Below the pieces are notes generated by a model. It did no database searches and was not told the DNA's origin. It saw nothing but the letters and a program-made list of their open reading frames with translations. The translations under genes and the position numbers were made by a program. Source: Candidatus Woesearchaeota archaeon (GTDB taxonomy: Archaea; Nanobdellota; Nanobdellia; Woesearchaeales; ARS49). From it: a stretch of DNA of 32,000 nucleotides. The stretch spans positions 29,317 through 61,316 of the forward strand of contig NYZT01000021.1 of NCBI GenBank assembly GCA_002687275.1, in the 5' to 3' direction. This document shows positions 16,434 to 32,000 of this stretch, piece by piece (position 1 is the first letter of the stretch; every line of letters begins with the position of its first letter).

Positions 16434-17678
16434 ATGCCAAAAGGAATGAAGGATTACTATCCAGAGGAAAAGGCAGTACGCGAAAAAATGTACGCGACCT
16501 TCAAAGCCAGAGCAAAAGCGTACGGCTTCCAAGAGGTAGAAATGCCGGTCATGGAAACCGTAGAAAACCTCACCGCAAAATCTGGCCCAGACAAGAAAGA
16601 GCAAATCTTTTTGCTAGAAAAAAGAAGCAACGAACAGCTAGGACTGCGGTTTGACCTCACCATACCCATGACCAGACTCTTCGTGGCCAAACAAAAAGAG
16701 CTACCCAAACCCGTCAAATGGTTCTGCGTGGACAAGAACTGGCGTTACGAAGCACCCCAAAAAGGAAGACTACGAGAGTTCTACCAGTTCGGCGTAGAAG
16801 TCTTTGGCTCTGAGAGCCCAAGAGTGGACGCAGAGGTCATCAACCTCGTCATAGACTGCATGCAAGCCTTTGGACTAACCGAAAAAGAAGTCATCATGAA
16901 GGTCAACAGCAGAAAACTCCTAGAAGGATTGCTCGCCTCTTACGTCTCACCCAAACAAATGGTAGACGTCATCCGCGCCATCGACAGAGCGGCAGGCGAA
17001 GACCAGGAAACCCTCAAAAAAGAGCTCAAAGGCATAGGCATTGAGAACGACGAGGTCGTCAAGCTCGCCCAGATCAAAGGAAGCATGCAAGAGGTAGCAT
17101 CACAGATAGCAAACTGCGACATAACCGAAGAAGGAAAGGAAGAGCTAGAAAAATTGAAGCAAGCCTGCGCCTTACTACCCAAAGCATGGGTCGAGGTAGA
17201 CCTCGGACTAGCAAGAGGACTGGACTACTACACCGGCATCGTGTTCGAGGCCTTTGACAGAGCAGGCGAGCTACGAGCGCTAGCAGGCGGCGGAAGATAC
17301 GACGCCCTGACCTCGTTGCTCGGCGGCGAAGACACACCCGCAACAGGCTTCGGCTTCGGCATACTCCCCTTCAGCATCTACTTAGAAGAAAAAGGGTTGG
17401 TGCCAAAAACAGGCTTTGTCATCGAATACTTTGTCGCACCCGTAGACGAGGCAGTCGTGCCAGAAGCCTTCCGCATCACAGAAAAACTACGAAAAAAGTT
17501 CAACGTCGAGGTAGACCTAGCCGGCAGAAAACTCAGCAAACAATTTGAGTACGCAGCATCCATCGGAGCAAAAAAAGTCATCGTGGTAGGCTCACGAGAC
17601 CTAGAAAAGGGCCTCGTCACCGTCCGAGACCTTGCCAAGGGCAAGGAAGAGCAGGTCAAGGTTGAAGACCTAGGTTAG
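16434..17678 (+). CDS. hisS: Histidine--tRNA ligase
   Basis: MPKGMKDYYPEE start, motif 2 region WRYEAPQKGRLREFYQFGVEVFG and motif 3 region LAGGGRYD. GAGGTG lies 5 nt upstream of the ATG at 16434. The track's 16380 start would overlap the tRNA. Confidence 0.95.
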   Translation: MPKGMKDYYPEEKAVREKMYATFKARAKAYGFQEVEMPVMETVENLTAKSGPDKKEQIFLLEKRSNEQLGLRFDLTIPMTRLFVAKQKELPKPVKWFCVDKNWRYEAPQKGRLREFYQFGVEVFGSESPRVDAEVINLVIDCMQAFGLTEKEVIMKVNSRKLLEGLLASYVSPKQMVDVIRAIDRAAGEDQETLKKELKGIGIENDEVVKLAQIKGSMQEVASQIANCDITEEGKEELEKLKQACALLPKAWVEVDLGLARGLDYYTGIVFEAFDRAGELRALAGGGRYDALTSLLGGEDTPATGFGFGILPFSIYLEEKGLVPKTGFVIEYFVAPVDEAVVPEAFRITEKLRKKFNVEVDLAGRKLSKQFEYAASIGAKKVIVVGSRDLEKGLVTVRDLAKGKEEQVKVEDLG

Positions 17679-17709
17679 GTTATTAAACCCTGCACCATTA
17701 CCTAATACT

Positions 17710-18261
17710 ATGTTGCGAGGATTATACACAACAGTGTTCACCTTGGCAGTGGCTTCATTATTCGGCTGCAAGGGAGCAAGTGTTGTAGAAAAACCCGTGT
17801 CGCAACCTAAACCAGCAACCCCTTCAACCTTGGCGCAAAGCGTGTTGGACTTTAAGGGCGAAAAGAAAGTAGAGCCCTTTCGTAACGGCACAGAGCACAC
17901 CATCCCTGAATCAGAATTTTCTAGGTTTACCTTTACCGCCGTGCACACCCCGGGAGGCCCTGTAACCTACAGAGACCAGAATCCTGCGGGTTGGAGTCCT
18001 GGAGACCGTTTGCAGTATTCAGTCCAGCATGCTCCAGGTCCTGGAGATGGTTCTTGGTTTAGAAAGTACCAAGACGAGTGTCAGCCTGACGGAAGCACAC
18101 GCACGAAGACTAGCGATAGAAACTACGGCATGTGGTGGAACCTCAGTCGCCTTTTGGAAACCCGCCCATCAGATTTCCAGCACATCGCACGCCACCACCA
18201 AGATGCGCGAACATTCAACCAAAGAGCTATTGAGTCCCAACCTTCTCCAGAACCGCAATAA
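17710..18261 (+). CDS. Putative secreted lipoprotein, function unknown
   Basis: The signal peptide ends in a lipobox-like ASLFGC. TTATTAAA lies 30 nt upstream of the ATG. Confidence 0.6.
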   Translation: MLRGLYTTVFTLAVASLFGCKGASVVEKPVSQPKPATPSTLAQSVLDFKGEKKVEPFRNGTEHTIPESEFSRFTFTAVHTPGGPVTYRDQNPAGWSPGDRLQYSVQHAPGPGDGSWFRKYQDECQPDGSTRTKTSDRNYGMWWNLSRLLETRPSDFQHIARHHQDARTFNQRAIESQPSPEPQ

Positions 18262-18289
18262 GACGTTTTCTGCATTACTAAATTGTGCT

Positions 18290-18328
18290 CGGAAATCTTC
18301 CGGAATTTCTTAGCAAACTCATATAAAA
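18290..18328 (+). promoter_or_regulatory. Shared promoter module copy 1: CGGAAATCTTCCGGAA-N14-CATATAAAA
   Basis: 16-mer at 18290-18305, TATA at 18320-18328, exact 14-nt gap. Upstream of the TumE-like gene. Confidence 0.55.
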
Positions 18329-18411
18329 CGATCAGCTGACTTGTTTCTAAGCGAAACATTTAAATTATGGTACTGCATACCCTATGGTATGCAATACCCG
18401 AGAAAACCATC

Positions 18412-18678
18412 ATGGAAATTCCACGGTATGAAAAACAGTGGATTGGGGAGGGCCTCTTTGTGGAGATGACGCTCTATCCTACTGCCTCAGGACCCAAGTT
18501 TAGCTTGGTGCTCATCGACCACGGAAAAAGAGTTGTGGGAATTGACAATCATGAGAACAAACCACCACACAAACATGTGGGCGCAAGAGAACTGCCATAC
18601 CCTTTCATCACACTCGATAAGTTGTTTACAGACTTTTGGCAGCTCGTTGTGGAATACTTGGAGAAAAAAAATGGCTAA
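18412..18678 (+). CDS. TumE/DUF6516-like putative toxin component
   Basis: LFVEMTLYP...FSLVLIDHGKRVVGIDNHENKPPHKHVGARELPYPFITLDKLFTDFWQLV fits my recollection of the family pattern (GYDNxxG..HxH...E.Y.F.....L..DF). An alternative in-frame ATG lies at 18367. I prefer 18412 because 18374-18393 is a perfect palindrome, which looks more like an operator or UTR. Confidence 0.65.
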   Translation: MEIPRYEKQWIGEGLFVEMTLYPTASGPKFSLVLIDHGKRVVGIDNHENKPPHKHVGARELPYPFITLDKLFTDFWQLVVEYLEKKNG

Positions 18679-19063
18679 AACACTCATCATACAAGTCCGC
18701 AGCATTTGGGAATCCTTTAAGGAATTCCGTCATGAGTACGAAAATGCAAAAAAGGGCAAAATGAAGGGCGGCTATTATCTGACTTTCGCCAACATGGCCT
18801 TGTTCCGTAAGACGATTACGCCGAAGAGGCTAGAGCTAGTGCATGTCATCGCTTCCAAAAAGCCTTCTTCTGTTAGGCAACTAGCCGCACTAGTAAGCCG
18901 TGATTACAAAAGCGTCAGCCAGGACCTCGCCATCCTCGAGGACAACGGCCTGGTAACGTTTTCTTCTCACAAAGGCCGAAAAATTCCTCAAGCAGCATAC
19001 GACAACCTCCACATAAAGATTCCGTTAGTGGCCACCCAGCGAGTAAACAATCCACCCCCCTAA
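18671..19063 (+). CDS. Winged-helix DNA-binding protein, TumA-like putative antitoxin/regulator
   Basis: MAKTLIIQVRSIWESFKEF...ITPKRLELVHVIASKKPSSVRQLAALVSRDYKSVSQDLAILEDNGLV is a MarR/ArsR-like wHTH. Its ATG overlaps the upstream stop (ATGGCTAA, 8-nt overlap). Confidence 0.7.
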   Translation: MAKTLIIQVRSIWESFKEFRHEYENAKKGKMKGGYYLTFANMALFRKTITPKRLELVHVIASKKPSSVRQLAALVSRDYKSVSQDLAILEDNGLVTFSSHKGRKIPQAAYDNLHIKIPLVATQRVNNPPP

Positions 19064-19096
19064 AAAGCAGGTGTTGTTAGTCTTGGGATCTCACAG

Positions 19097-19119
19097 GTAA
19101 ATAATCAGATGATTGTTTA
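19097..19119. repeat. 23-bp palindromic repeat, copy A (GTAAATAATCAGATGATTGTTTA)
   Basis: 20 of 23 positions match copy B. Arms are TAAATAATCA / TGATTGTTTA (9 of 10 complementary). Overlaps the stop codon of the 19117..19785 gene. Confidence 0.6.
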
Positions 19120-19785
19120 GTCGCTATGACATTTTTCGATTCCAATCACATATATCATGTTGTCGTCCAATGTGTTCAATTCGAAGAGTCCATTCTTGTC
19201 GTGTAAACGCATACCGTCCGAACTCTCCCCCAGAGGCCGAAGGTCTCTGGAGCGTAACGTTTCTTCACTAACCGATTCAATTCTCTTTCCGTCTGCATCA
19301 TGGAGGGTCACACCCACTTCAGGAACCTTAAGAAAAACAGGTACCTTATCTGCATCATTGTTTGGCGCATGGGCTTCTGTTCTTACGCGCATCATGGTCA
19401 CATAGTCAGCGGATGATCCTGAGATTAGATAATTGTGTAGGCTCAGATGAGCTTGCATATTTGGTATTGTGCAACTTGCATAACTTGCCACAGAGGGACC
19501 AGAAGCCCTTGCGTCCGCGATCTCGGAAGGGTCTAGGTCTGCGTATCCATCCTTCACGAAACTGAGAGGAAACGTAAAACGGAAATCCGCGATTATACTT
19601 TCGACTTTTTCGGCCGCCCATGAACGTCCATTGGCGATCCGGATCTGATCCACTTCGAAATCCAAATCAAATTCTTCCCTGCTGTCTTGACGTAAAGAAC
19701 TCATCAGCCTCTCGTAGAAGTTCCCATACATCTCTGTGTTGCTAATGCGCGACAGCCCCATATTCTGTGACTGGATTGATCTCAT
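19117..19785 (-). CDS. Hypothetical protein (222 aa), second gene of a two-gene cassette
   Basis: ORF with AGGGAG 8 nt upstream of the ATG, 21 nt downstream of the 109-aa ORF. No family recognised. Confidence 0.65.
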   Translation of the reverse strand: MRSIQSQNMGLSRISNTEMYGNFYERLMSSLRQDSREEFDLDFEVDQIRIANGRSWAAEKVESIIADFRFTFPLSFVKDGYADLDPSEIADARASGPSVASYASCTIPNMQAHLSLHNYLISGSSADYVTMMRVRTEAHAPNNDADKVPVFLKVPEVGVTLHDADGKRIESVSEETLRSRDLRPLGESSDGMRLHDKNGLFELNTLDDNMIYVIGIEKCHSD

Positions 19786-19806
19786 GATTCGTTTTCTCCC
19801 TTGTAA

Positions 19807-20136
19807 CTATCTTAGGTTTTGTCTTTGTTGTTCCAGATTGTCGGCTTCCTGATCTTCTTGCGTGAAGTCTTGTTCAAGCGTATTCTCGAGTATTTCTTCA
19901 TCATCTTTCGGCTTGGTTTCAGCGTCGAATTTGGTTAGCAAAGTATCCATTTGTTGATGATCTGTAAGTGGAACAGCTCTTGCGTACTGCGTTGCTTCAT
20001 TTTCATAAGTGACCTTGTAGATATCGCGTGGTCCACGTACTAAGTATTTGACTCCATCTTCAACGAATACCCATGCGGCGTCGGTGCTTCCTCGGACATT
20101 TCCGGTTTCACCATCGTAATTGTCAATATGTGTCAT
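19807..20136 (-). CDS. Hypothetical protein (109 aa) with an acidic C-terminal tail, first gene of a two-gene cassette
   Basis: ORF with GGGGGAG upstream of the ATG and TTTATATAG about 60 nt upstream. The C-terminus KPKDDEEILENTLEQDFTQEDQEADNLEQQ is highly acidic. Confidence 0.65.
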   Translation of the reverse strand: MTHIDNYDGETGNVRGSTDAAWVFVEDGVKYLVRGPRDIYKVTYENEATQYARAVPLTDHQQMDTLLTKFDAETKPKDDEEILENTLEQDFTQEDQEADNLEQQRQNLR

Positions 20137-20261
20137 GTTTTCTCCCCCGTAGCGATGTGCTACTTTATGCGTAGAATGGTATAGTATTGAACTATATAAA
20201 CCTGCCGGTTAATTGTGACTTGAAAGGGACGACACAATAGATTACGTGCCCGAGGGCAAGA

Positions 20262-22626: not shown

Positions 22627-22818
22627 ATGGTTGTGGTAACAACAAAAAAGATTGGTGGAAGCCTCATGGTAGTCATACCAAGAGACGTGGTCAAAGAAAA
22701 AGACATAGGCCCAGATGAGACCGTGGATGTGGAAGTGAAGAAAGTGAGAAAGAGCTATCTAGGCGTGTTGAAGGGCATGGGAAGACTCACCAAGGAGGAT
22801 AAGTACGACATTGACTAA
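22627..22818 (+). CDS. vapB: AbrB/SpoVT-type antitoxin (VapB-like)
   Basis: MVVVTTKKIGGSLMVVIPRDVVKEKDIGPDETVDVEV is a swapped-hairpin AbrB-type N-terminus. AAGGAG lies 7 nt upstream. It overlaps the PIN gene by 8 nt. Confidence 0.8.
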   Translation: MVVVTTKKIGGSLMVVIPRDVVKEKDIGPDETVDVEVKKVRKSYLGVLKGMGRLTKEDKYDID

Positions 22819-23206
22819 GCTTGTTGTAGATGCTTGGTGCTGGGTCGAGTATCTCATTGGAGGGCCGCTAGCACCTATAATTGAAACAATGCTAGACAAG
22901 CACGAGTGCTACACCAGCGCTGTAAGCCTGGCAGAGACAGCGAGCAGGGCCCGGCGAATGGGAAAGGATGAGGCCCTCGCTGTTGAAGCCATCATGCAAA
23001 GATCACGCTTGGTGACGGTAGACGCCAACCTGGCACTAGAAGCGGGAATACTTCACTCTACAGAAAAGAAGCGCAACAGGCACTTTGGCCTAGGTGATGC
23101 TTTCGTACTCAGCACCTCCAAAAGCATAAAGGGAAGAATACTCACCAACGACAAGGATTTTGCACACCTTACTAACGTTTGGATGCTCGATAGACTGAAA
23201 AAATAA
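22811..23206 (+). CDS. vapC: PIN-domain ribonuclease toxin (VapC-like)
   Basis: LVVDAWCWVEYL (first Asp), SLAETASR (Glu), GDAFVLSTS (Asp) and ILTNDKDF (Asp) give the PIN acidic quartet. TTG start with no in-frame ATG nearby. Confidence 0.85.
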   Translation: MTKLVVDAWCWVEYLIGGPLAPIIETMLDKHECYTSAVSLAETASRARRMGKDEALAVEAIMQRSRLVTVDANLALEAGILHSTEKKRNRHFGLGDAFVLSTSKSIKGRILTNDKDFAHLTNVWMLDRLKK

Positions 23207-23219
23207 GAAGGGAAGGCTT

Positions 23220-23378
23220 TTACGCCTTGCCCAAGATTTTATACATAGTGCAGTCGCACTTTGTGCATACGCCCTTTGCTGCTTTCATCTTGACTTTGCC
23301 CTTCATAATTACTTCTTTCACGTCTTTCATCTTGCGATTGGTCTTGCATCGCATGCATCTTCCTTCTATATCGGCCAT
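23220..23378 (-). CDS. 52-aa zinc-ribbon protein, DUF5679-like (not in the ORF track)
   Basis: MADIEGRCMRCKTNRKMKDVKEVIMKGKVKMKAAKGVCTKCDCTMYKILGKA: CxxC...CxxC with the K-rich pattern I associate with DUF5679. GAGGTGG lies 7 nt upstream. Confidence 0.65.
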   Translation of the reverse strand: MADIEGRCMRCKTNRKMKDVKEVIMKGKVKMKAAKGVCTKCDCTMYKILGKA

Positions 23379-23450
23379 GTTATAACCACCTCAAGTCTTA
23401 ACCTAGACTAAGACTATTTAAAATTAACGCTTATTTAGTCGTTAGTAAGT

Positions 23451-23897
23451 CTAATCAGGACAAAGAGAACTTGTTAGGAAAGGCGAACGATCACGGTATT
23501 CTGGCAAGGGGATTCGCATGCCTTCGGACATCTCCAGACCTACAGGAAGTTTAACTATCTCCCACGCCACACCAGAACATGGCGCAAGCTCTACTTCATC
23601 GCGCGGAGGAGCACCTAAGGCTAAAGCTACTTTCTCTACGCCCCCTCGCATTTTTTCCCATGAGGCTGCGTCGGAAGCACCACCAACAATTTGCAGATAT
23701 TTTCCAGAAGGACGCGATTGCACGGTGGCCGTTATTCCTTCGGGCATCTCAGGAACATCATCTTTATCCCACTGAATCCTTCTCCCAAAATTACCTCCAC
23801 TTTCGCCTACGAAACCGTACACGTCGCTCATACAGTCACCAGGGAAGAGATGGTGGCTAGGCCCAAAAGCAATGGTGCGACTTAAGTCTGGACTCAT
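23451..23897 (-). CDS. Hypothetical protein (148 aa, or 126 aa from the internal Met)
   Basis: ORF co-oriented with, and 31 nt downstream of, the DUF655 gene. No family recognised. Confidence 0.55.
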   Translation of the reverse strand: MSPDLSRTIAFGPSHHLFPGDCMSDVYGFVGESGGNFGRRIQWDKDDVPEMPEGITATVQSRPSGKYLQIVGGASDAASWEKMRGGVEKVALALGAPPRDEVELAPCSGVAWEIVKLPVGLEMSEGMRIPLPEYRDRSPFLTSSLCPD

Positions 23898-23928
23898 ACC
23901 TAGGAAGAGTTATGGATAGTATTTAAAC

Positions 23929-24498: not shown

Positions 24499-24606
24499 AC
24501 CCCATACTCCTATTCATGTTGTTATTCATAAGTGTTAATACCTGCTTGTATATAAACGTGTCGATAGATCACCCTTATAAGCCTGTGGTTACTTACCAAT
24601 CACGTA

Positions 24607-25140
24607 ATGAGAACTATTCCCGAGATAGAGAGCCCTATCCAAATCCAGGCCACGGTGGACGCCAGCCACAATATGAAAAAAGATGATTTGGTGGTCATCC
24701 CTGAACTGGGCGACGTGCGAGTTCCTGAGGGCACGGCAGTTTTTGTCCCTGATAAACTCGTTCTTAATACCAAACCCGTGCTGTTGTGCGTGTACGTGCA
24801 CCCGAGATTGGCAAAGGCACCCAGTGATTCAGATCAGGTTTGCGTTCCTATCCGCTCCTTACCCTCTTTAGACCACGAAAGTATGGCCGAACAGACGCTT
24901 GCCATGCATGCGAAAGGTTATCATGGCTGCATGTTCACCGTGCCCGATTTTGAGTATCCTGAGTATCGACAAGTGCGCGACATCAAGGGTGCTGCAGAGG
25001 TGGTGCCCACGAGTTACGTGCATGCCACCTTAGAATCTTTGTGTAAAACCCGACCGTCGTTGAGACAGCCGCTTCTCCAACTACAGCTATATGACGGTGA
25101 GGTTCCCATGATCGATGACATCGCTGCAGCGGGACACTGA
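24607..25140 (+). CDS. Hypothetical protein (177 aa)
   Basis: ORF with CTTATAAG 32 nt upstream. No family recognised. The 3' end overlaps the convergent 25087..26190 gene by 54 nt. Confidence 0.55.
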   Translation: MRTIPEIESPIQIQATVDASHNMKKDDLVVIPELGDVRVPEGTAVFVPDKLVLNTKPVLLCVYVHPRLAKAPSDSDQVCVPIRSLPSLDHESMAEQTLAMHAKGYHGCMFTVPDFEYPEYRQVRDIKGAAEVVPTSYVHATLESLCKTRPSLRQPLLQLQLYDGEVPMIDDIAAAGH

Positions 25141-26190
25141 GATGGGATGCCCCTGGGCTTGCAACTCTGCGATGACCTTCACAATCACGTGATCAGCAGT
25201 GAGCACGCGGGTGGGCTGCGGACTTCTTGCCAGCGCAGTATGCAAAATCAAGCCATCAGCCATTTTTTTCACCTCATCCCAAGAAGGATCTTTAGCACCA
25301 CGATTGCCATTCCAAAGTTGTTTCAACAGGGCTTCTGCATTCGCGGTGCGCTGTCTCTCGTTAAAGGGAAACACTCCACCGCCACTTTCTACGGCTATCT
25401 TTTCCCACATGGAACGGTAAGAAGCACCTAACAGAGCGCTTTTCTTAGACTTCTTTGGATTTGCCAGCTCATCCATGACCGACTTGGGAATCAACATTGT
25501 CGGAGTCTGGACTGCCAACCGGAAACCGCCCCTGTTGTGTTTTCTCACAAATTCATTGCAGTGCTCGTACACGTCTCGTGCAAAGTTGGCGTCCAAAATG
25601 ACAAGAACATTTGCTTGCGCACCTGCCGCACCAAATTCTGCGTCCAGGTTCAACGTTGCCTCTATAGGTTCTGCCAAACCAGACTCAACAGCAGGGATAA
25701 CCACTTTAGTAAAAGATTCTTGGATGTGCGTCAGAATTTCGACTTCTGACTCTTGTATAAGGTGTAACATGACAAAGGCGGTTTCCTGCGTTTCAGGGAC
25801 GTCCAACTCGTTCATTGCTTCATCGCCCTCCTGCTGGCGTGTCACGACAATGTTATTCTCGCCCTTGAGCCTTTCCTCGGCCTCGGCAAAAAGAGCCTCA
25901 ACCTCATCATCCAAGGCCAAGTCTTTGATTCTTTCGCGCAATGTGGAGAGGGCGCGGATGAGTTTAGCGTCAAAGGATGGCGGCTTGCCTGGTCTGCCCA
26001 ACAGCTTATCAATGCTTTGCAGAGCGGTAGCCACCGCTTTTTTCGTATCACTATCACGCTCCCCCTTACCCTTTCTCGTACGCCTGTTTTCAAGTTTCGC
26101 GCCAGCATCTAACAGAAGGGGTCCCACTTCTTTAAGTTCTTGGATTCGTGCTTCCAGAATTTCCACGATATTAAGACACTCGTTCCGCAT
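25087..26190 (-). CDS. 367-aa protein: N-terminal helical/coiled-coil region plus a C-terminal PIN-like nuclease domain
   Basis: The C-terminal part has VLVILDANFARDV, IPKSVMDELANP, MADGLILHTALA and RVLTADHVIV. These resemble the four acidic positions of PIN domains (PhoH-associated/PIN_4-like spacing). The N-terminal 190 aa match no family I recognise. Confidence 0.6.
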   Translation of the reverse strand: MRNECLNIVEILEARIQELKEVGPLLLDAGAKLENRRTRKGKGERDSDTKKAVATALQSIDKLLGRPGKPPSFDAKLIRALSTLRERIKDLALDDEVEALFAEAEERLKGENNIVVTRQQEGDEAMNELDVPETQETAFVMLHLIQESEVEILTHIQESFTKVVIPAVESGLAEPIEATLNLDAEFGAAGAQANVLVILDANFARDVYEHCNEFVRKHNRGGFRLAVQTPTMLIPKSVMDELANPKKSKKSALLGASYRSMWEKIAVESGGGVFPFNERQRTANAEALLKQLWNGNRGAKDPSWDEVKKMADGLILHTALARSPQPTRVLTADHVIVKVIAELQAQGHPISVSRCSDVIDHGNLTVI

Positions 26191-26224
26191 ACCTTCCCGT
26201 GAATTGGTCGCTATAAAAAATTAT

Positions 26225-26569
26225 CTATGCTTTTGGCTTCACGGCAACCACTGCATCTGCTATCTTTTGGGCGTGCTCTTTGGAGAAGGTGACGTTGTAG
26301 CACGATAGCACGGTCTTCACCTGTTCAGGCGTCACAGGGCACGAATCAACAATCTTGTGGGCAAAGACGTCCTTCCATCGAGGGATGCCGATCTTTGCAA
26401 GACTGTCGAGCAACGTTTTGGCCTCTTTGACATTCAACAGGCAAGTCTCTGCGTGCTCTAACGTTTTTTGTGCTCGGAAGTTTAGCTCACCTTGCTTTTG
26501 GACCTTTTCTAGTGCTTCGCGTACAAACGGCAGGCTTACAGGGTCTTCGGATATGATGCTGTCTTTCAT
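26225..26569 (-). CDS. rpoF: DNA-directed RNA polymerase subunit F (Rpo4)
   Basis: 114 aa with the typical pattern (LPFVREALEKV...NFRAQKTLEHAE...AKTLLDSLAKIGIPRWKDVFAHKIVDSCPVTPEQVKTVL). It lies immediately downstream of rpl21e with a 4-nt overlap, as in many archaea. Confidence 0.85.
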   Translation of the reverse strand: MKDSIISEDPVSLPFVREALEKVQKQGELNFRAQKTLEHAETCLLNVKEAKTLLDSLAKIGIPRWKDVFAHKIVDSCPVTPEQVKTVLSCYNVTFSKEHAQKIADAVVAVKPKA

Positions 26570-27432: not shown

Positions 27433-27837
27433 ATGGGCATTTTTGACACTTTAAAAGACAAACTCGGGGGAAGCAATTTCGACGAGCTCGAGGCAGAAGA
27501 GGGTTACCTAGAGTTAGACAACGCAGGTAACGTTGACAAAGGAAAAATCACGGTTCACCCGTTCCTTTTAGAAGAATTTGACGACATCAAAGGCGTGCTG
27601 GACAGTCTACGAGCTGGCCAGACCATAGCACTCGTCAATATTAAGCCATTAAAAGACAGAGACCTGGTCGAACTAAAGCGCGCGATCAACAAGCTAAAGA
27701 AGACCACGGATGCCATCGAAGGAGAGATCGCAGGGTTTGGCGAGGACTACATCGTCGTAACACCAAACTTTGCCACCATCCACCGAAGCTCACGACAGGT
27801 CAAACAAGTCAAAGAAGACGCTACTGTGGCAGAGTAG
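27433..27837 (+). CDS. sepF: Cell division protein SepF homologue
   Basis: ITVHPFLLEEFDDIKGVLDSLRAGQTIALVNIKPLKDRDLVELKRAINKLKKTTDAIEGEIAGFGEDYIVVTPNFATI fits the SepF/DUF552 core. GGAGGGT lies 5 nt upstream and TTTATATAG about 45 nt upstream. Confidence 0.85.
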   Translation: MGIFDTLKDKLGGSNFDELEAEEGYLELDNAGNVDKGKITVHPFLLEEFDDIKGVLDSLRAGQTIALVNIKPLKDRDLVELKRAINKLKKTTDAIEGEIAGFGEDYIVVTPNFATIHRSSRQVKQVKEDATVAE

Positions 27838-27841
27838 TAGG

Positions 27842-30800
27842 TTATACCATCTTTGGAAGATCGATGTTCCCAGCCTTTATGCGGTTAGGGATAGCACTTT
27901 GCTGAGGCCGATAGAGAATCCCAAAGGCGCGGTCCAAGCGCTGACGAGTGTCTCTGTATTCTCTTCTTAGCATTTTTGGAGTCTTCCCAAACCGGGCCTG
28001 AAGCGCTTGGACAGGCACCGTGCCTCGCCAGTCCCACTCCTCTATCCGTGCATCCCAAACCTCCACTTCCTCCTCAGTAAGTTCCGCAGCTTCGTAGAGT
28101 TCCTGTCGGTTGAGATGTACGGGGCCTAACTCCCCTTCTATCCTATTTGGAGGCACCGGCTTACAAGGAACGTCAAAGATCAAACAGAGAAGTTTACGAT
28201 TGCTAACATAATCACCAGGAGAGTCCAACTTAGGAAGAACGCGTTCGTGAACAAAACGTTTGTTAAGCAGATGTGAAGAAGGATTTCTAACGCCAAAGTG
28301 CCCACCGAAACATCCTTGGTCCTTAAGATCGTGACTTGACAGATACCACGATCCTTTCCTTGTAAACATATCTCCAACGGAATCAAACACTTGGGAGATT
28401 CCCCCTTCCCACTTGCTGTTAGAATAAAGCACCTTGTCAAAAACAATGTCAGGATATGCAAATTTGATCACTTCCGGGAAATTTCCGTCAAAGAATCTCG
28501 CGACCCAGTGTTTAACTCGGCTACTCAAAGAGTTAAAGGTAGGACGGGAGTTGCTGTCGATTTCATAACCGAAATCACGCTCGAGGCAGGTCCGCAACCG
28601 CAATCTTGCATAGCGATCCCAGGGAAGTTTCTTTCCTTGATCAAGTATCCTTTTGGTTTGTGCGGTCACTCGTTCTCCGCCTTTCTCAAAGGCAGGTCGA
28701 TTATGACGAATCGCTTCTAGGAGAACCTTAACCTCTGCAGTTCTCAACTCAGTAGAGTCTACATCTCTCCCCTCAAAAGATTCTTGCAGCGTTCTTCTCT
28801 GGCTATCGCTCAGCGGAGCTGTCTCCACCAAAGAATCTAACACTTCCAGATGTTGTTCTAGTGGCGTCTTACGTTTAGGCAGAAGAATCCTTCGATCATT
28901 GCCCGTCATGCCCGCCAACATCTCCAGCTTCCGATCAGCCCCCGGACCAAACTTGGCGTCTGCCATTTCCTTGTACAATTGGTCCAGACTTCCACCGTTC
29001 TCTATCGCTCGCTTAATAGGATCATAGCGGGTGTTCGTGGTTCGGTCAAAAAATTTAGGGTTTGGCAAGTAGCCTCTTGAGTGGCTCATAAGGTCCCTCA
29101 AGCCATAAGCACAAGAATGATGACTTAGGGAGTCGCTAAGGCTTGCCTTTGCGGCAAAGAGCGCAGTATTTATTTGAGAGAGGAGCATGCCTTCCTCGGC
29201 GGCCATGTCTTTTTGCAACTGCCCGCGTAAATAGCGTACAAGCAAACGGTGTTGGAGACCAGAAAGCTGGTCCAGACCCCTCTTTGCGTCACGGATGATT
29301 CTTGGATACTCCTCTATCTCCGCATCACCCACGAGCCACTGCAGACGCCGAGGATGGAGCTCCAAGCCACCAAGAGCATCTTCCATCAAGCGTTGGAACT
29401 CGTTGTTTTCCGCAGCGCTATCAGGAGAAAGCTCTCTTCCTTTTAAGTTAGTCCAAAAGTAAGAATCTCCTTCATCCTCCACTATTTGGATCATCGATCG
29501 GCCATGAAGTTTGAGCACAGTGTATCTTACTGCTGCCGAAAGGTAGGGAATAGGATTGTCAATTCTCCTGTCCGGATCTCTGAGACTGGCTTGATAGAGA
29601 GACAGGGCAACTGATTGCTGTGCCTCCTCTGCCTGGTGCTGGCTACGCGAGTATTTCAGTCCCATACGAAAGAGAATGTCAAAGATGTTTTCGCCATCAA
29701 CGAGGCCGTTTTCCTGCATGCCGCTAACAATTTCCGCGAGAGTTAACGAGCCACCAACGTCGACAGGCGCGGTGGCCACAGCAAAAGGACTCACTCCCCC
29801 AACATGACGCCCTTCCAGGTCAACGCGAAGTACATGATCTCCCTTTCTAACAAGACAATACTTGTCCGTCTGGTCAGGTCCATGTTCGATAACGAGCGCT
29901 GCCCGGTCAGGCTGGTCAAAGGTCACGCTCTTCGCGAGGTTGCCAGAAACTTGAAATGTCGGAGATAAACCCTGCAAGGTCCACGGTTCTTTTTCAGGAT
30001 CAACATTGAGTAGAGCGATCCACCTCGTGTCTTCCTTCAACAGGGCCATTCCGTGAGTTACAAGACCATAAGGAAAAGTGTGCATTGCCTCCACGCCCTC
30101 ATCGTGCATGAGCAGCGTTCGGCCGAGAATCTCCGCAGATTTAGCCTTGCTTTGTACTTTCACAGGATGTAATGATTCATCCCACAAACTCAGAGACTTG
30201 CCCCCGCGAACGGTAAGTGGTCCGTAAAAAGGCACCAGCTTTGGATGACGGAAATGCTCAGGTTGGGCCATCCATAAGGCGAACAAATTTTCTCGCGCCT
30301 CACCCCTAGCTTGCTGGAATGTCACCTCTGAAGCGTCTCCCAACGCTCTTCTCACCGCGGCACTCTTAGGCAGTGGCTCAAGATAGTCCACTAATAACAC
30401 CTTGCCTTCCAGATCAGAGACGACTGTGTTGGTCTGGCCCCACGGATTCCTAGAACGCAGGAAGGTTATGGCCTCGCCACCACGTCCTAACCCTAGCTGA
30501 TAATTTTTCCCCAGGAGTCTTGTTTTGCCCTGAGGATCCAACCTACGCATGCCCAGGACTTGGTGGTCCGAACCGCCCTTCTTGTCTTCTTTGGCGATAA
30601 ATCCCCTCGCCTTTTTCAAACGGAACGGACGGCCATACTCCTGCCCATCCAACTCAAAGGCAAGGTCTGCCCTTCGAAAACCTCTGATGTTGTAACTCAC
30701 CCTAACCGTCTTACCTATAGCTTCCGAAGGGAGCCCGCCACAGTAGAGCATCTGTCTTTCAACCATGATTCGGGTACAACCCTCGCCGTTAGTGGATCGC

Positions 30801-31678
30801 TCTATCTTTGATGTTACCTCGCCAGAACCCCTAAGAAGCAGATTGGCCTTGTCTGTGCCTTCTGCAACCGTGGACGAACCGAGAAATCTCAGGCCACCAT
30901 GAAGTTCACTAGATTGTAATCGCGTATGCTCACCAAACCCTAGCGTCTGTTGATCTGAGAACACCAAGGGTTGGGTTCCTTGCAGGTTAGAAAAGCCAAC
31001 ACGCAATTCTGATTCTCTAGGCTTGGAACGGTAGAAGAGAAGAGGAGTCTCTTCTTCAGGGGTTTCAGGAAGCTGGAACGCGGCAAGAGGAGTGCCCTCT
31101 GTATCAAAAAAGTGCGTCTCGCCGGCATGAAAAAAAGCGAAAACATGGGAAAGATCATCGTTCACAGCAAAGGGCCTTCCTAACCTCATCAAACCTTTTT
31201 TAGGAGTGAGCAATGCTGCGCCATTAAAGGAACGAACGTCCTGCGCACCCACAGAAGGCATGGCAAAGTAGTGCTTAGCCAGCGGGTGACGGTGGAGAGG
31301 ATCCGGAACCAACGATTTTTGCGAACTAGCCAAAACCTTCCCCTCTAAGCTAGCGATAACTTCAGCATGACGGCCCTCTCGGACGCGTATGTTCAGAGAG
31401 AGCGGGCGGCGACCTGCCAGTTGATGGGATTCCCCAAGACTAAAATGGTGCAGGCCAATAGCGCACCCGTAAAATGATGGCGGATCTTGGGTCACGGCAC
31501 GGTCGTCCAACACCGAAAAACCCCCGTCAAAGAGAACAACGTTTTGAGCGTCCTCTTTTCTCAATCGTAAAAGAACGTCTGCCAGAATCTTCGGGTCGAA
31601 CCCAGCTTGAGGAAGCGTGTAGACCCCGAGGTTGGAAAGCTCTCGGGCCCATGAGAGGTCGCTGGTGCTATCACCCAC
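27842..31678 (-). CDS. Giant orphan protein (1278 aa), no recognisable domain
   Basis: Uninterrupted 3.8-kb ORF. GTG start, with an in-frame TGA two codons upstream and TTTATATA about 40 nt upstream. No signal peptide, TM helix, Walker, HExxH or other motif seen by eye. Confidence 0.85.
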   Translation of the reverse strand: MGDSTSDLSWARELSNLGVYTLPQAGFDPKILADVLLRLRKEDAQNVVLFDGGFSVLDDRAVTQDPPSFYGCAIGLHHFSLGESHQLAGRRPLSLNIRVREGRHAEVIASLEGKVLASSQKSLVPDPLHRHPLAKHYFAMPSVGAQDVRSFNGAALLTPKKGLMRLGRPFAVNDDLSHVFAFFHAGETHFFDTEGTPLAAFQLPETPEEETPLLFYRSKPRESELRVGFSNLQGTQPLVFSDQQTLGFGEHTRLQSSELHGGLRFLGSSTVAEGTDKANLLLRGSGEVTSKIERSTNGEGCTRIMVERQMLYCGGLPSEAIGKTVRVSYNIRGFRRADLAFELDGQEYGRPFRLKKARGFIAKEDKKGGSDHQVLGMRRLDPQGKTRLLGKNYQLGLGRGGEAITFLRSRNPWGQTNTVVSDLEGKVLLVDYLEPLPKSAAVRRALGDASEVTFQQARGEARENLFALWMAQPEHFRHPKLVPFYGPLTVRGGKSLSLWDESLHPVKVQSKAKSAEILGRTLLMHDEGVEAMHTFPYGLVTHGMALLKEDTRWIALLNVDPEKEPWTLQGLSPTFQVSGNLAKSVTFDQPDRAALVIEHGPDQTDKYCLVRKGDHVLRVDLEGRHVGGVSPFAVATAPVDVGGSLTLAEIVSGMQENGLVDGENIFDILFRMGLKYSRSQHQAEEAQQSVALSLYQASLRDPDRRIDNPIPYLSAAVRYTVLKLHGRSMIQIVEDEGDSYFWTNLKGRELSPDSAAENNEFQRLMEDALGGLELHPRRLQWLVGDAEIEEYPRIIRDAKRGLDQLSGLQHRLLVRYLRGQLQKDMAAEEGMLLSQINTALFAAKASLSDSLSHHSCAYGLRDLMSHSRGYLPNPKFFDRTTNTRYDPIKRAIENGGSLDQLYKEMADAKFGPGADRKLEMLAGMTGNDRRILLPKRKTPLEQHLEVLDSLVETAPLSDSQRRTLQESFEGRDVDSTELRTAEVKVLLEAIRHNRPAFEKGGERVTAQTKRILDQGKKLPWDRYARLRLRTCLERDFGYEIDSNSRPTFNSLSSRVKHWVARFFDGNFPEVIKFAYPDIVFDKVLYSNSKWEGGISQVFDSVGDMFTRKGSWYLSSHDLKDQGCFGGHFGVRNPSSHLLNKRFVHERVLPKLDSPGDYVSNRKLLCLIFDVPCKPVPPNRIEGELGPVHLNRQELYEAAELTEEEVEVWDARIEEWDWRGTVPVQALQARFGKTPKMLRREYRDTRQRLDRAFGILYRPQQSAIPNRIKAGNIDLPKMV

Positions 31679-31769
31679 GAAAACTCACCCACATCAGGGA
31701 GGGAATATCTGCGCATATATAAACCTTCAGGACTAAAGTTTTTAAATAGGGAGAGCCCTAGTAAGACTT

Positions 31770-32000
31770 ATGGAAACACTCAAGGACCAGCCGTGTCCGA
31801 TATGCATGGACAAGAAGGGGCTGACCTTAACGCAAGATGATACAGAGGTTCCCTATTTTGGAAAAGTGTTCGTGTTTTCTATGAGCTGCACCAAGTGCAA
31901 GTACAACAAGGCAGACATCGAGGTTGAGGCGCAACGAGAGGGGGCAAAATATACGTTAGAAGTGGCTAGCAAGGAAGATCTTAAGATTCGCGTCATCCGG
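31770..32000 (+). CDS. ZPR1-type zinc-finger protein (N-terminal 77 aa; runs off the right edge)
   Basis: METLKDQPCPICMDKKGLTLTQDDTEVPYFGKVFVFSMSCTKCKYNKADIEVEAQREGAKYTLEVASKEDLKIRVIR matches CPxC...IPYFG...CxxCGY...Y.L.V....DL..RV of ZPR1 domains. TTTAAATA lies 29 nt upstream. Confidence 0.8.
   Translation, partial: METLKDQPCPICMDKKGLTLTQDDTEVPYFGKVFVFSMSCTKCKYNKADIEVEAQREGAKYTLEVASKEDLKIRVIR

Follow-up and report, generated by a model that had tools for sequence, protein, structure and literature searches.

A 1278-residue woesearchaeotal protein built around a predicted, badly eroded ECF-type sigma module

A diverged sigma2-sigma4 module in the centre of the protein

We analysed a window of 32,000 nucleotides from the genome of a Candidatus Woesearchaeota archaeon (contig NYZT01000021.1, assembly GCA_002687275.1) and focused on a minus-strand gene that encodes a protein of 1278 residues, hereafter P0001, between sepF and a ZPR1-type zinc-ribbon gene. 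Profile and fold comparisons predict that residues ~641-856 of P0001 form a badly eroded sigma-70 module of the extracytoplasmic function (ECF) type, in which a sigma region-2-like domain (sigma2) is followed by a region-4-like helix-turn-helix (sigma4). The module sits between an N-terminal head of 640 residues and a helical C-terminal tail (Table 1). On balance, we regard P0001 as a soluble, fast-evolving multi-domain protein organized around this diverged bacterial-type ECF sigma module; the protein probably resides in the cytoplasm and is DNA-binding or transcription-associated.

The module is hardly visible to searches that use P0001 alone. Pfam assigned no family to the whole protein at E ≤ 1, a lone-query search against the PDB sequences returned no match, and the single NCBIfam match was a sub-threshold sigma70-ECF hit at residues 671-777. 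An exhaustive phmmer search against 1.84 billion cluster representatives retrieved five proteins, namely a fragment of P0001 itself, P0006, P0004, P0005 and P0007. The 250-residue P0006, whose record holds the sigma part alone, matches residues 667-868 of P0001 with an E-value of 2e-4, and contains the Pfam domains Sigma70_r2 and r4_2, both above threshold. The counterpart of P0001 in the sister species (P0002, encoded at the syntenic position in the same-genus genome G001) also exceeds the Pfam threshold for Sigma70_r2.

Profile comparison brought the module out. With hhalign, residues 659-852 of P0001 aligned to a profile built from three sigma domains that Pfam recognizes, P0001 itself being left out, at a probability of 96.8% and an E-value of 2e-10. 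A profile combining the sigma parts of P0001, P0002 and P0006 (A4) was most similar among the PDB sequences to SigE of Mycobacterium tuberculosis (E-value of 2.4e-8), followed by SigH, RpoE and SigR, and sigma2 and sigma4 are correctly ordered in its matches to the ECF sigma factors of PDB. Structural similarity search using Foldseek with the AlphaFold2 model of residues 641-1278, which has some confident blocks, gave top rows that are nearly all ECF sigma factors. The central region comprises a sigma2 domain, with homology to known sigma factors in regions 2.1-2.4, and, after it, a sigma4 helix-turn-helix, with region 3 absent between the two. It holds the sole Sigma70_r2-like signal of the whole host genome. 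The original prediction, made from the sequence alone, had found no detectable domain in this protein; however, profile and fold searches detected both the diverged sigma2-sigma4 module and a DUF4046-like segment in the tail, and placed the centre in the sigma-70/ECF superfamily. An outcome of this type had been listed in the original prediction among the findings that would overturn it.

Several observations weigh against this reading. P0001 alone falls far below the curated thresholds, with 11.7 bits against a cut-off of 24 for Sigma70_r2, and a score of 14 against a cut-off of 42.9 for TIGR02937. The AlphaFold2 model of residues 641-1278, based on six sequences, is poor overall, with a mean predicted local distance difference test (pLDDT) score of 53.5. 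The conserved region-2 signature is not preserved: as judged by eye, the stretch Q-A-E-E-A-Q-Q of P0001 matches the D-A-E-D-x-x-Q pattern in part, and the aligned ECF helix "WLxxIxxNxxxDxxR" has Y and K in P0001 in place of its N and D, whereas both are retained in P0002, P0006 and SigE of M. tuberculosis. By eye, the sigma4 recognition helix also appears stripped of most of its basic residues, which P0002 and P0006 retain. In addition, the codon-based coding score of the gene is 0.05-0.26 bits per codon, compared to 0.38 ± 0.15 for 510 long open reading frames (ORFs) of the genome.

Some of these features would also be expected of an eroding relic, that is, a sigma-derived gene that was acquired by the ancestor of the genus, has lost its sigma function, and is either weakly kept, for example as a scaffold, or drifting towards loss, with a recently recruited head of little or no function. 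The hallmark residues replaced in P0001 and kept in P0002 and P0006, the sub-threshold Pfam scores and the low coding score all suit such a history, as do a head that has no homolog anywhere searched and is absent from the sister species, and an unstable architecture, with a partial duplication of the tail module in G001. However, a stop-free frame of 3.8 kilobases could not last neutrally, and the sister gene of 952 residues is likewise intact. Moreover, independent marine data sets contain the protein in virtually unchanged form, and its gene is preceded by a putative TATA box and a Shine-Dalgarno (SD)-like element. We consider a relic unlikely, albeit with a real chance of being correct.

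Table 1. Features of the P0001 gene and its borders, in window coordinates
Feature	Position	Strand	Remarks
Whole gene	27842-31678	minus	1278 codons, uninterrupted frame, GTG start; stop codon at 27842-27844
Putative ribosome-binding site	31684-31690	minus	SD-like GGGTGAG, six bases ahead of GTG; read from sequence
Putative archaeal promoter	31716-31723	minus	TTTATATA box; read from sequence
Orphan region (head), residues 1-640	29759-31678	minus	beta-rich by low-confidence model only
Sigma region-2-like domain (sigma2), residues ~641-726	29501-29758	minus	
Sigma region-4-like helix-turn-helix (sigma4), residues ~789-856	29111-29314	minus	
Conserved helical C-module, residues ~868-1262	27893-29077	minus	common to P0002, P0004, P0005, P0007 and L014
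DUF4046-like segment in C-module, residues ~1029-1145	28244-28594	minus	profile alignment
Confident helical block, residues ~1190-1256	27911-28111	minus	further helix-turn-helix-like by eye
sepF, left border of insertion	27433-27837	plus	Pfam SepF, E-value of 2e-9; 94% identical to the G001 copy
ZPR1-type zinc-ribbon gene, 5' part, right border	31770-32000	plus	Pfam Zn_ribbon_ZPR1, E-value of 5e-7; 87% identical to the G001 copy

The gene is intact and encodes a soluble protein

The extent, strand and GTG start of the frame hold as originally read. The in-frame codons that lead into the start are TGA-GTT-TTC-GTG, and the TGA three codons upstream therefore leaves no possible start further 5' of the GTG; the first in-frame ATG after it is codon 140. 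The protein of 1278 residues, identical or with the sole change M1277I, recurs in records of NCBI/ENA, JGI/IMG, Tara and MetaClust, so the frame is not an artefact of one assembly. The coding score is positive in the frame of the gene over most of its length, and is weakest at residues 1101-1200. Hydropathy analysis revealed a maximum 19-residue Kyte-Doolittle mean of only 1.29, so neither a transmembrane segment nor a signal peptide is expected, in agreement with the cytoplasmic location proposed earlier. The gene is real and encodes a soluble protein. It is intact, and has been kept open while diverging far faster than its neighbours.

The C-terminal tail belongs to a rare family

The C-terminal half of P0001 is all-helical in the AlphaFold2 model, as had been surmised from its sequence. 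Three of the phmmer hits, the metagenomic proteins P0004, P0005 and P0007, align to residues ~883-1200, and a BLASTP comparison with the G001 ortholog gave an identity of 25% over the tail, with an E-value of 1e-22. Motifs such as NRKL and R..LY..A.L...W are conserved in the tail alignments A1 and A2, the latter of which served to build a hidden Markov model of the tail module.

The relatives of the tail are found together with sigma domains. In P0007, ECF-type sigma domains detectable by Pfam precede the tail match. P0005 has no Pfam sigma match at E ≤ 0.1; its N-terminus aligns with the sigma regions and resembles a stand-alone sigma ORF on metagenome contig SDBV01060898.1. At that locus (L014:2299-3971), an ECF-like sigma of 210 residues adjoins the ORF of the tail protein P0004, and the pair would represent either a split or a frameshifted form of the P0005-type fusion. 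In P0002, part of the tail module is duplicated, at residues ~333-523 and 532-961 of the stop-to-stop frame. The listed longest frame of this sister gene (L004:10104-12962) overlaps the start of ZPR1 by ~55 nucleotides, and translation of the gene probably begins at an internal Met close to residue 58.

One segment of the tail resembles DUF4046 (PF13255). Alignment by hhalign of the A2 profile against a tandem-repeat protein from another genome of the order (G143) gave a probability of 92.6% and an E-value of 4e-7 over a stretch of ~115 residues, and the tandem-repeat protein itself matches PF13255 with an E-value of 3e-14. The segment at residues ~1029-1145 of P0001 shares the pattern P-G-x-F-x-x-W-x-F ... 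W-x-G-E-x-G with these Woesearchaeales repeats. However, the link is at the profile level only; neither P0001 nor its tail alone matches PF13255. Pfam found nothing at all in the tail alone, and the segment is poorly modelled by AlphaFold2. No mention of DUF4046 was found in the literature library searched. Additional sigma4-like helix-turn-helix domains in the tail were unsupported by hhalign, the sole hint being a weak PHROG sigma match in P0007. The G143 protein (L006:1285-2481) has 398 residues and consists of ~4 tandem DUF4046 repeats and a Cys-rich N-terminal stretch; its gene adjoins that of a large surface protein, and a second repeat protein of 300 residues is encoded at L012.

The tail module is very sparsely distributed. 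Besides the P0001 genome itself (G000), it was found in none of 200 genomes of the order, a set without the sister species G001, and it was detected neither in the IMG/VR viral contigs nor in the contigs of GTDB species-representative genomes. A scan of metagenome contigs yielded only one short contig, that of L014. In a word-based search of 5.8 billion clusters, P0001 retrieved nothing and the A2 profile retrieved only P0007 itself. The module is missing from all other large ORFs with sigma domains in the family and the order. Altogether, the tail belongs to a small and very rare family of extensions that are fused to, or encoded beside, ECF-like sigma factors. The earlier description of P0001 as a very large, lineage-specific protein holds.

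The N-terminal head is specific to this species

The phmmer search found no relative of the 640-residue head among the 1.84 billion cluster representatives; nor was there a relative at the protein or DNA level in 40 related genomes, or a paralog in its own genome. The label of orphan given by the original prediction therefore stands for the N-terminal half of P0001, but not for its centre and tail, for which relatives were found. Two attempts to search the ESM Atlas with the N-terminal part gave no usable match, with a best score of 0.76.

A recurring G-x-x-L/V...G pattern had been proposed to mark a repeat or propeller-like fold in residues 1-650. We found no support for it: self-BLAST gave no off-diagonal match at E ≤ 50, and all ten block-against-block Smith-Waterman comparisons remained at z ≤ 3.0. 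The AlphaFold2 model of the head, predicted from a single sequence, has a mean pLDDT of only 32.6, at which its fold cannot be judged. Since P0002, P0005, P0006 and P0007 all start with the sigma domain, the head is an addition that only this species has.

The gene is a single-gene insertion between sepF and ZPR1

Comparison with the sister species G001 delimited the locus sharply. As originally described and confirmed by ORF positions and Pfam, the P0001 gene is convergent with sepF, their stops being 4 nucleotides apart, and divergent from ZPR1. The DNA similarity to G001, ~80-87% on both sides, ends at position 27820 and resumes at 31770, and nothing in between is alignable. Compared to the core neighbours, which are 86-99% identical to their G001 counterparts, P0001 is 25% identical, in its tail only. 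The syntenic gene of G001 is intact and encodes 952 residues, and the 3' junction with sepF is identical in both species. Among 28 other genomes of the family, 13 have sepF immediately followed by ZPR1 in the same orientation; this count includes two unpublished genomes (G010, locus L067, and G233, locus L074), and the pattern stands without both. Because the homology to G001 breaks at 27820 and 31770 between conserved neighbours, and sepF and ZPR1 are otherwise adjacent, the gene is a single-gene, opposite-strand insertion that dates from the ancestor of the genus and then diverged very fast. In the nearest other genus (G024), a plus-strand ORF of 293 residues (L062:1913-2791) fills the gap between sepF and ZPR1, and has no detectable similarity to the sigma profile.

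An insertion of this kind could also have been carried in as cargo by a mobile element or a virus, or be a conflict gene engaged in defence or counter-defence, and, once placed between sepF and ZPR1, have evolved in an arms race. This would be consistent with a genus-specific, single-gene insertion in a conserved gene pair, with its extreme divergence beside neighbours of 86-99% identity, with an atypical codon usage, and with the presence of other fast-evolving islands in the same window. Moreover, PHROG sigma families match P0002 and P0007, and sigma-like factors are common in phages. However, there is no integrase, and no direct, inverted or att-like repeats bracket the insert, the GC content of which is the same as that of the genome. 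The IMG/VR viral contigs gave no match, PADLOC assigned no family at E ≤ 0.01 to P0001, P0002 or P0007, and P0001 itself matches nothing in PHROGs. In addition, the 3' junction with sepF that both species share fits one old insertion. We regard such an origin as rather unlikely. A role in host interaction or defence, which the original prediction had raised for giant proteins of this kind, has no direct support: the PADLOC, PHROGs and viral contig searches were all negative. The extreme divergence between the two species would fit a role in some type of conflict.

Comparison with known sigma factors

Bacterial-type sigma-70 genes have been described in DPANN archaea (family fam00359), where they are especially prevalent in Woesearchaeota, lack anti-sigma factors, and have an unexplained role beside TBP, TFB and TFE (Castelle et al. 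2021, PMC8204110). Of 201 genomes of the order, 81 have a Sigma70_r2 match above threshold, often inside large ORFs; in the family, 18 of 41 genomes do. These sets include the unpublished genomes G135, G144, G155 and G206 for the order, and G010, G224 and G233 for the family.

P0001 agrees with the published description of these proteins in several respects. It combines a bacterial-type sigma module with a small DPANN-type genome that encodes TBP and TFB, and it has no anti-sigma partner: the P0001 gene has no anti-sigma gene beside it, and is flanked by sepF, which is convergent, and ZPR1, which is divergent. Large extensions without recognizable domains are also common among the sigma proteins of the order. 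By contrast, P0001 falls below the Pfam thresholds and carries a distinct tail family of 400 residues. Compared to the copies examined in the order, which are RpoD-like (r1.2-r2-r3-r4) and have the sigma regions at the C-terminus, in the large copies behind an extension of 450-700 residues without domains, P0001 is ECF-like, with sigma2 and sigma4 only, and its sigma module is central. A common plan is seen in eight large sigma ORFs from the order (L053:6030-8378, L054:3713-6166, L055:2105-4255, L056:4168-6894, L057:7058-9328, L024:1012-3102, L026:1006-3210 and L023:1-2244), each consisting of an N-terminal extension of 340-700 residues followed by RpoD-like sigma regions at the C-terminal end. 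The extensions are almost without Pfam matches, apart from r1.1 in L024 and weak HNH_repeat and HTH_17 matches in L056 (genome G226).

Regulation of ECF sigma factors by extensions fused to them is an established mechanism in bacteria (PMC3426412, PMC8999054). Similar to the groups ECF41, ECF42 and ECF56 (PMC3426412, PMC8999054, PMC7826278), P0001 has a minimal sigma2-sigma4 core, a long fused extension after sigma4, and no cognate anti-sigma gene. However, it is encoded by an archaeon that lacks a bacterial-type transcription system, and its tail is unrelated to SnoaL, TPR or other known ECF extensions. In addition, P0001 possesses an N-terminal region of 640 residues, and the hallmark residues of sigma2 are replaced. 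Mechanistically, the closest parallel to P0001 is found in these anti-sigma-less bacterial ECF sigma factors with fused extensions. The paper that reclassified the ECF sigma factors never uses the word "archaea" in its main text. Overall, the P0001 gene represents a cryptic form of the sigma puzzle that has already been published for DPANN archaea, to which it adds a central ECF-like core, a tail family and an orphan head.

Proposed role and implications

Transcription initiation in archaea depends on TBP and TFB, so any sigma-type protein that an archaeon maintains is unexplained. The host genome, 1.09 Mb in 55 contigs and ~90% complete, encodes TBP and two TFB genes. A classical sigma role is unlikely because TBP and TFB are present, and because the sigma2 hallmark and the basic residues of sigma4 are replaced; P0001 would thus not be a classical promoter-melting sigma factor. 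We propose that it may be a cytoplasmic protein that binds DNA or is associated with transcription, via the sigma4-type helix-turn-helix and the helical tail. A partner-binding or regulatory role might fall to the fused head and tail, as it does to the fused extensions in the anti-sigma-less ECF sigma factors of bacteria.

The absence of any known use for a sigma factor in a cell that has TBP and TFB, together with the fast evolution of the gene between species, would also suit an inter-domain effector. P0001 would then mimic a sigma factor and target the bacterial RNA polymerase of a partner or host cell, either by being delivered to it or by acting on it. However, P0001 has no signal peptide or transmembrane segment, no secretion genes adjoin its gene, and the hallmark residues of sigma2 are degraded. 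Moreover, the DPANN hosts known so far are archaea (PMC8204110). An effector is extremely improbable.

A broader interpretation, which we consider very unlikely, is that DPANN archaea have re-purposed a sigma-derived family for a task that sigma factors are not known to perform. Its members would dock on the clamp of the archaeal RNA polymerase as alternative or auxiliary initiation factors, or would act on the bacterial polymerase of a partner, and the present copy would have gained a 640-residue domain without detectable ancestor. If this were true, the head would be a candidate for the very recent origin of new protein sequence.

P0001 shows that the published count of DPANN sigma genes is too low, because copies that have diverged past detection by Pfam are annotated as giant orphans. 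The comparisons also define a small new family, in which an ECF-like sigma is followed by a tail of ~400 residues that includes the DUF4046-like segment. The two-species locus is tractable for questions of binding partners and domain origin, since it offers a compact contrast: an identity of 25% against 86-99% in the neighbours, and a head present in one species only.

Other genes and diverged stretches of the window

Besides the P0001 gene, the window carries genes for SepF, ZPR1, RpoF/Rpb4 and a DUF655 protein. Further stretches that have diverged from G001 lie at positions 17678-20259, 22772-23909 and 24568-26231. Two of the three are without any DNA similarity to G001, and the third contains two ORFs that are 40-42% identical to their counterparts. 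A PIN-like gene of 367 residues and a gene of 177 residues are 22-29% identical to those of G001.

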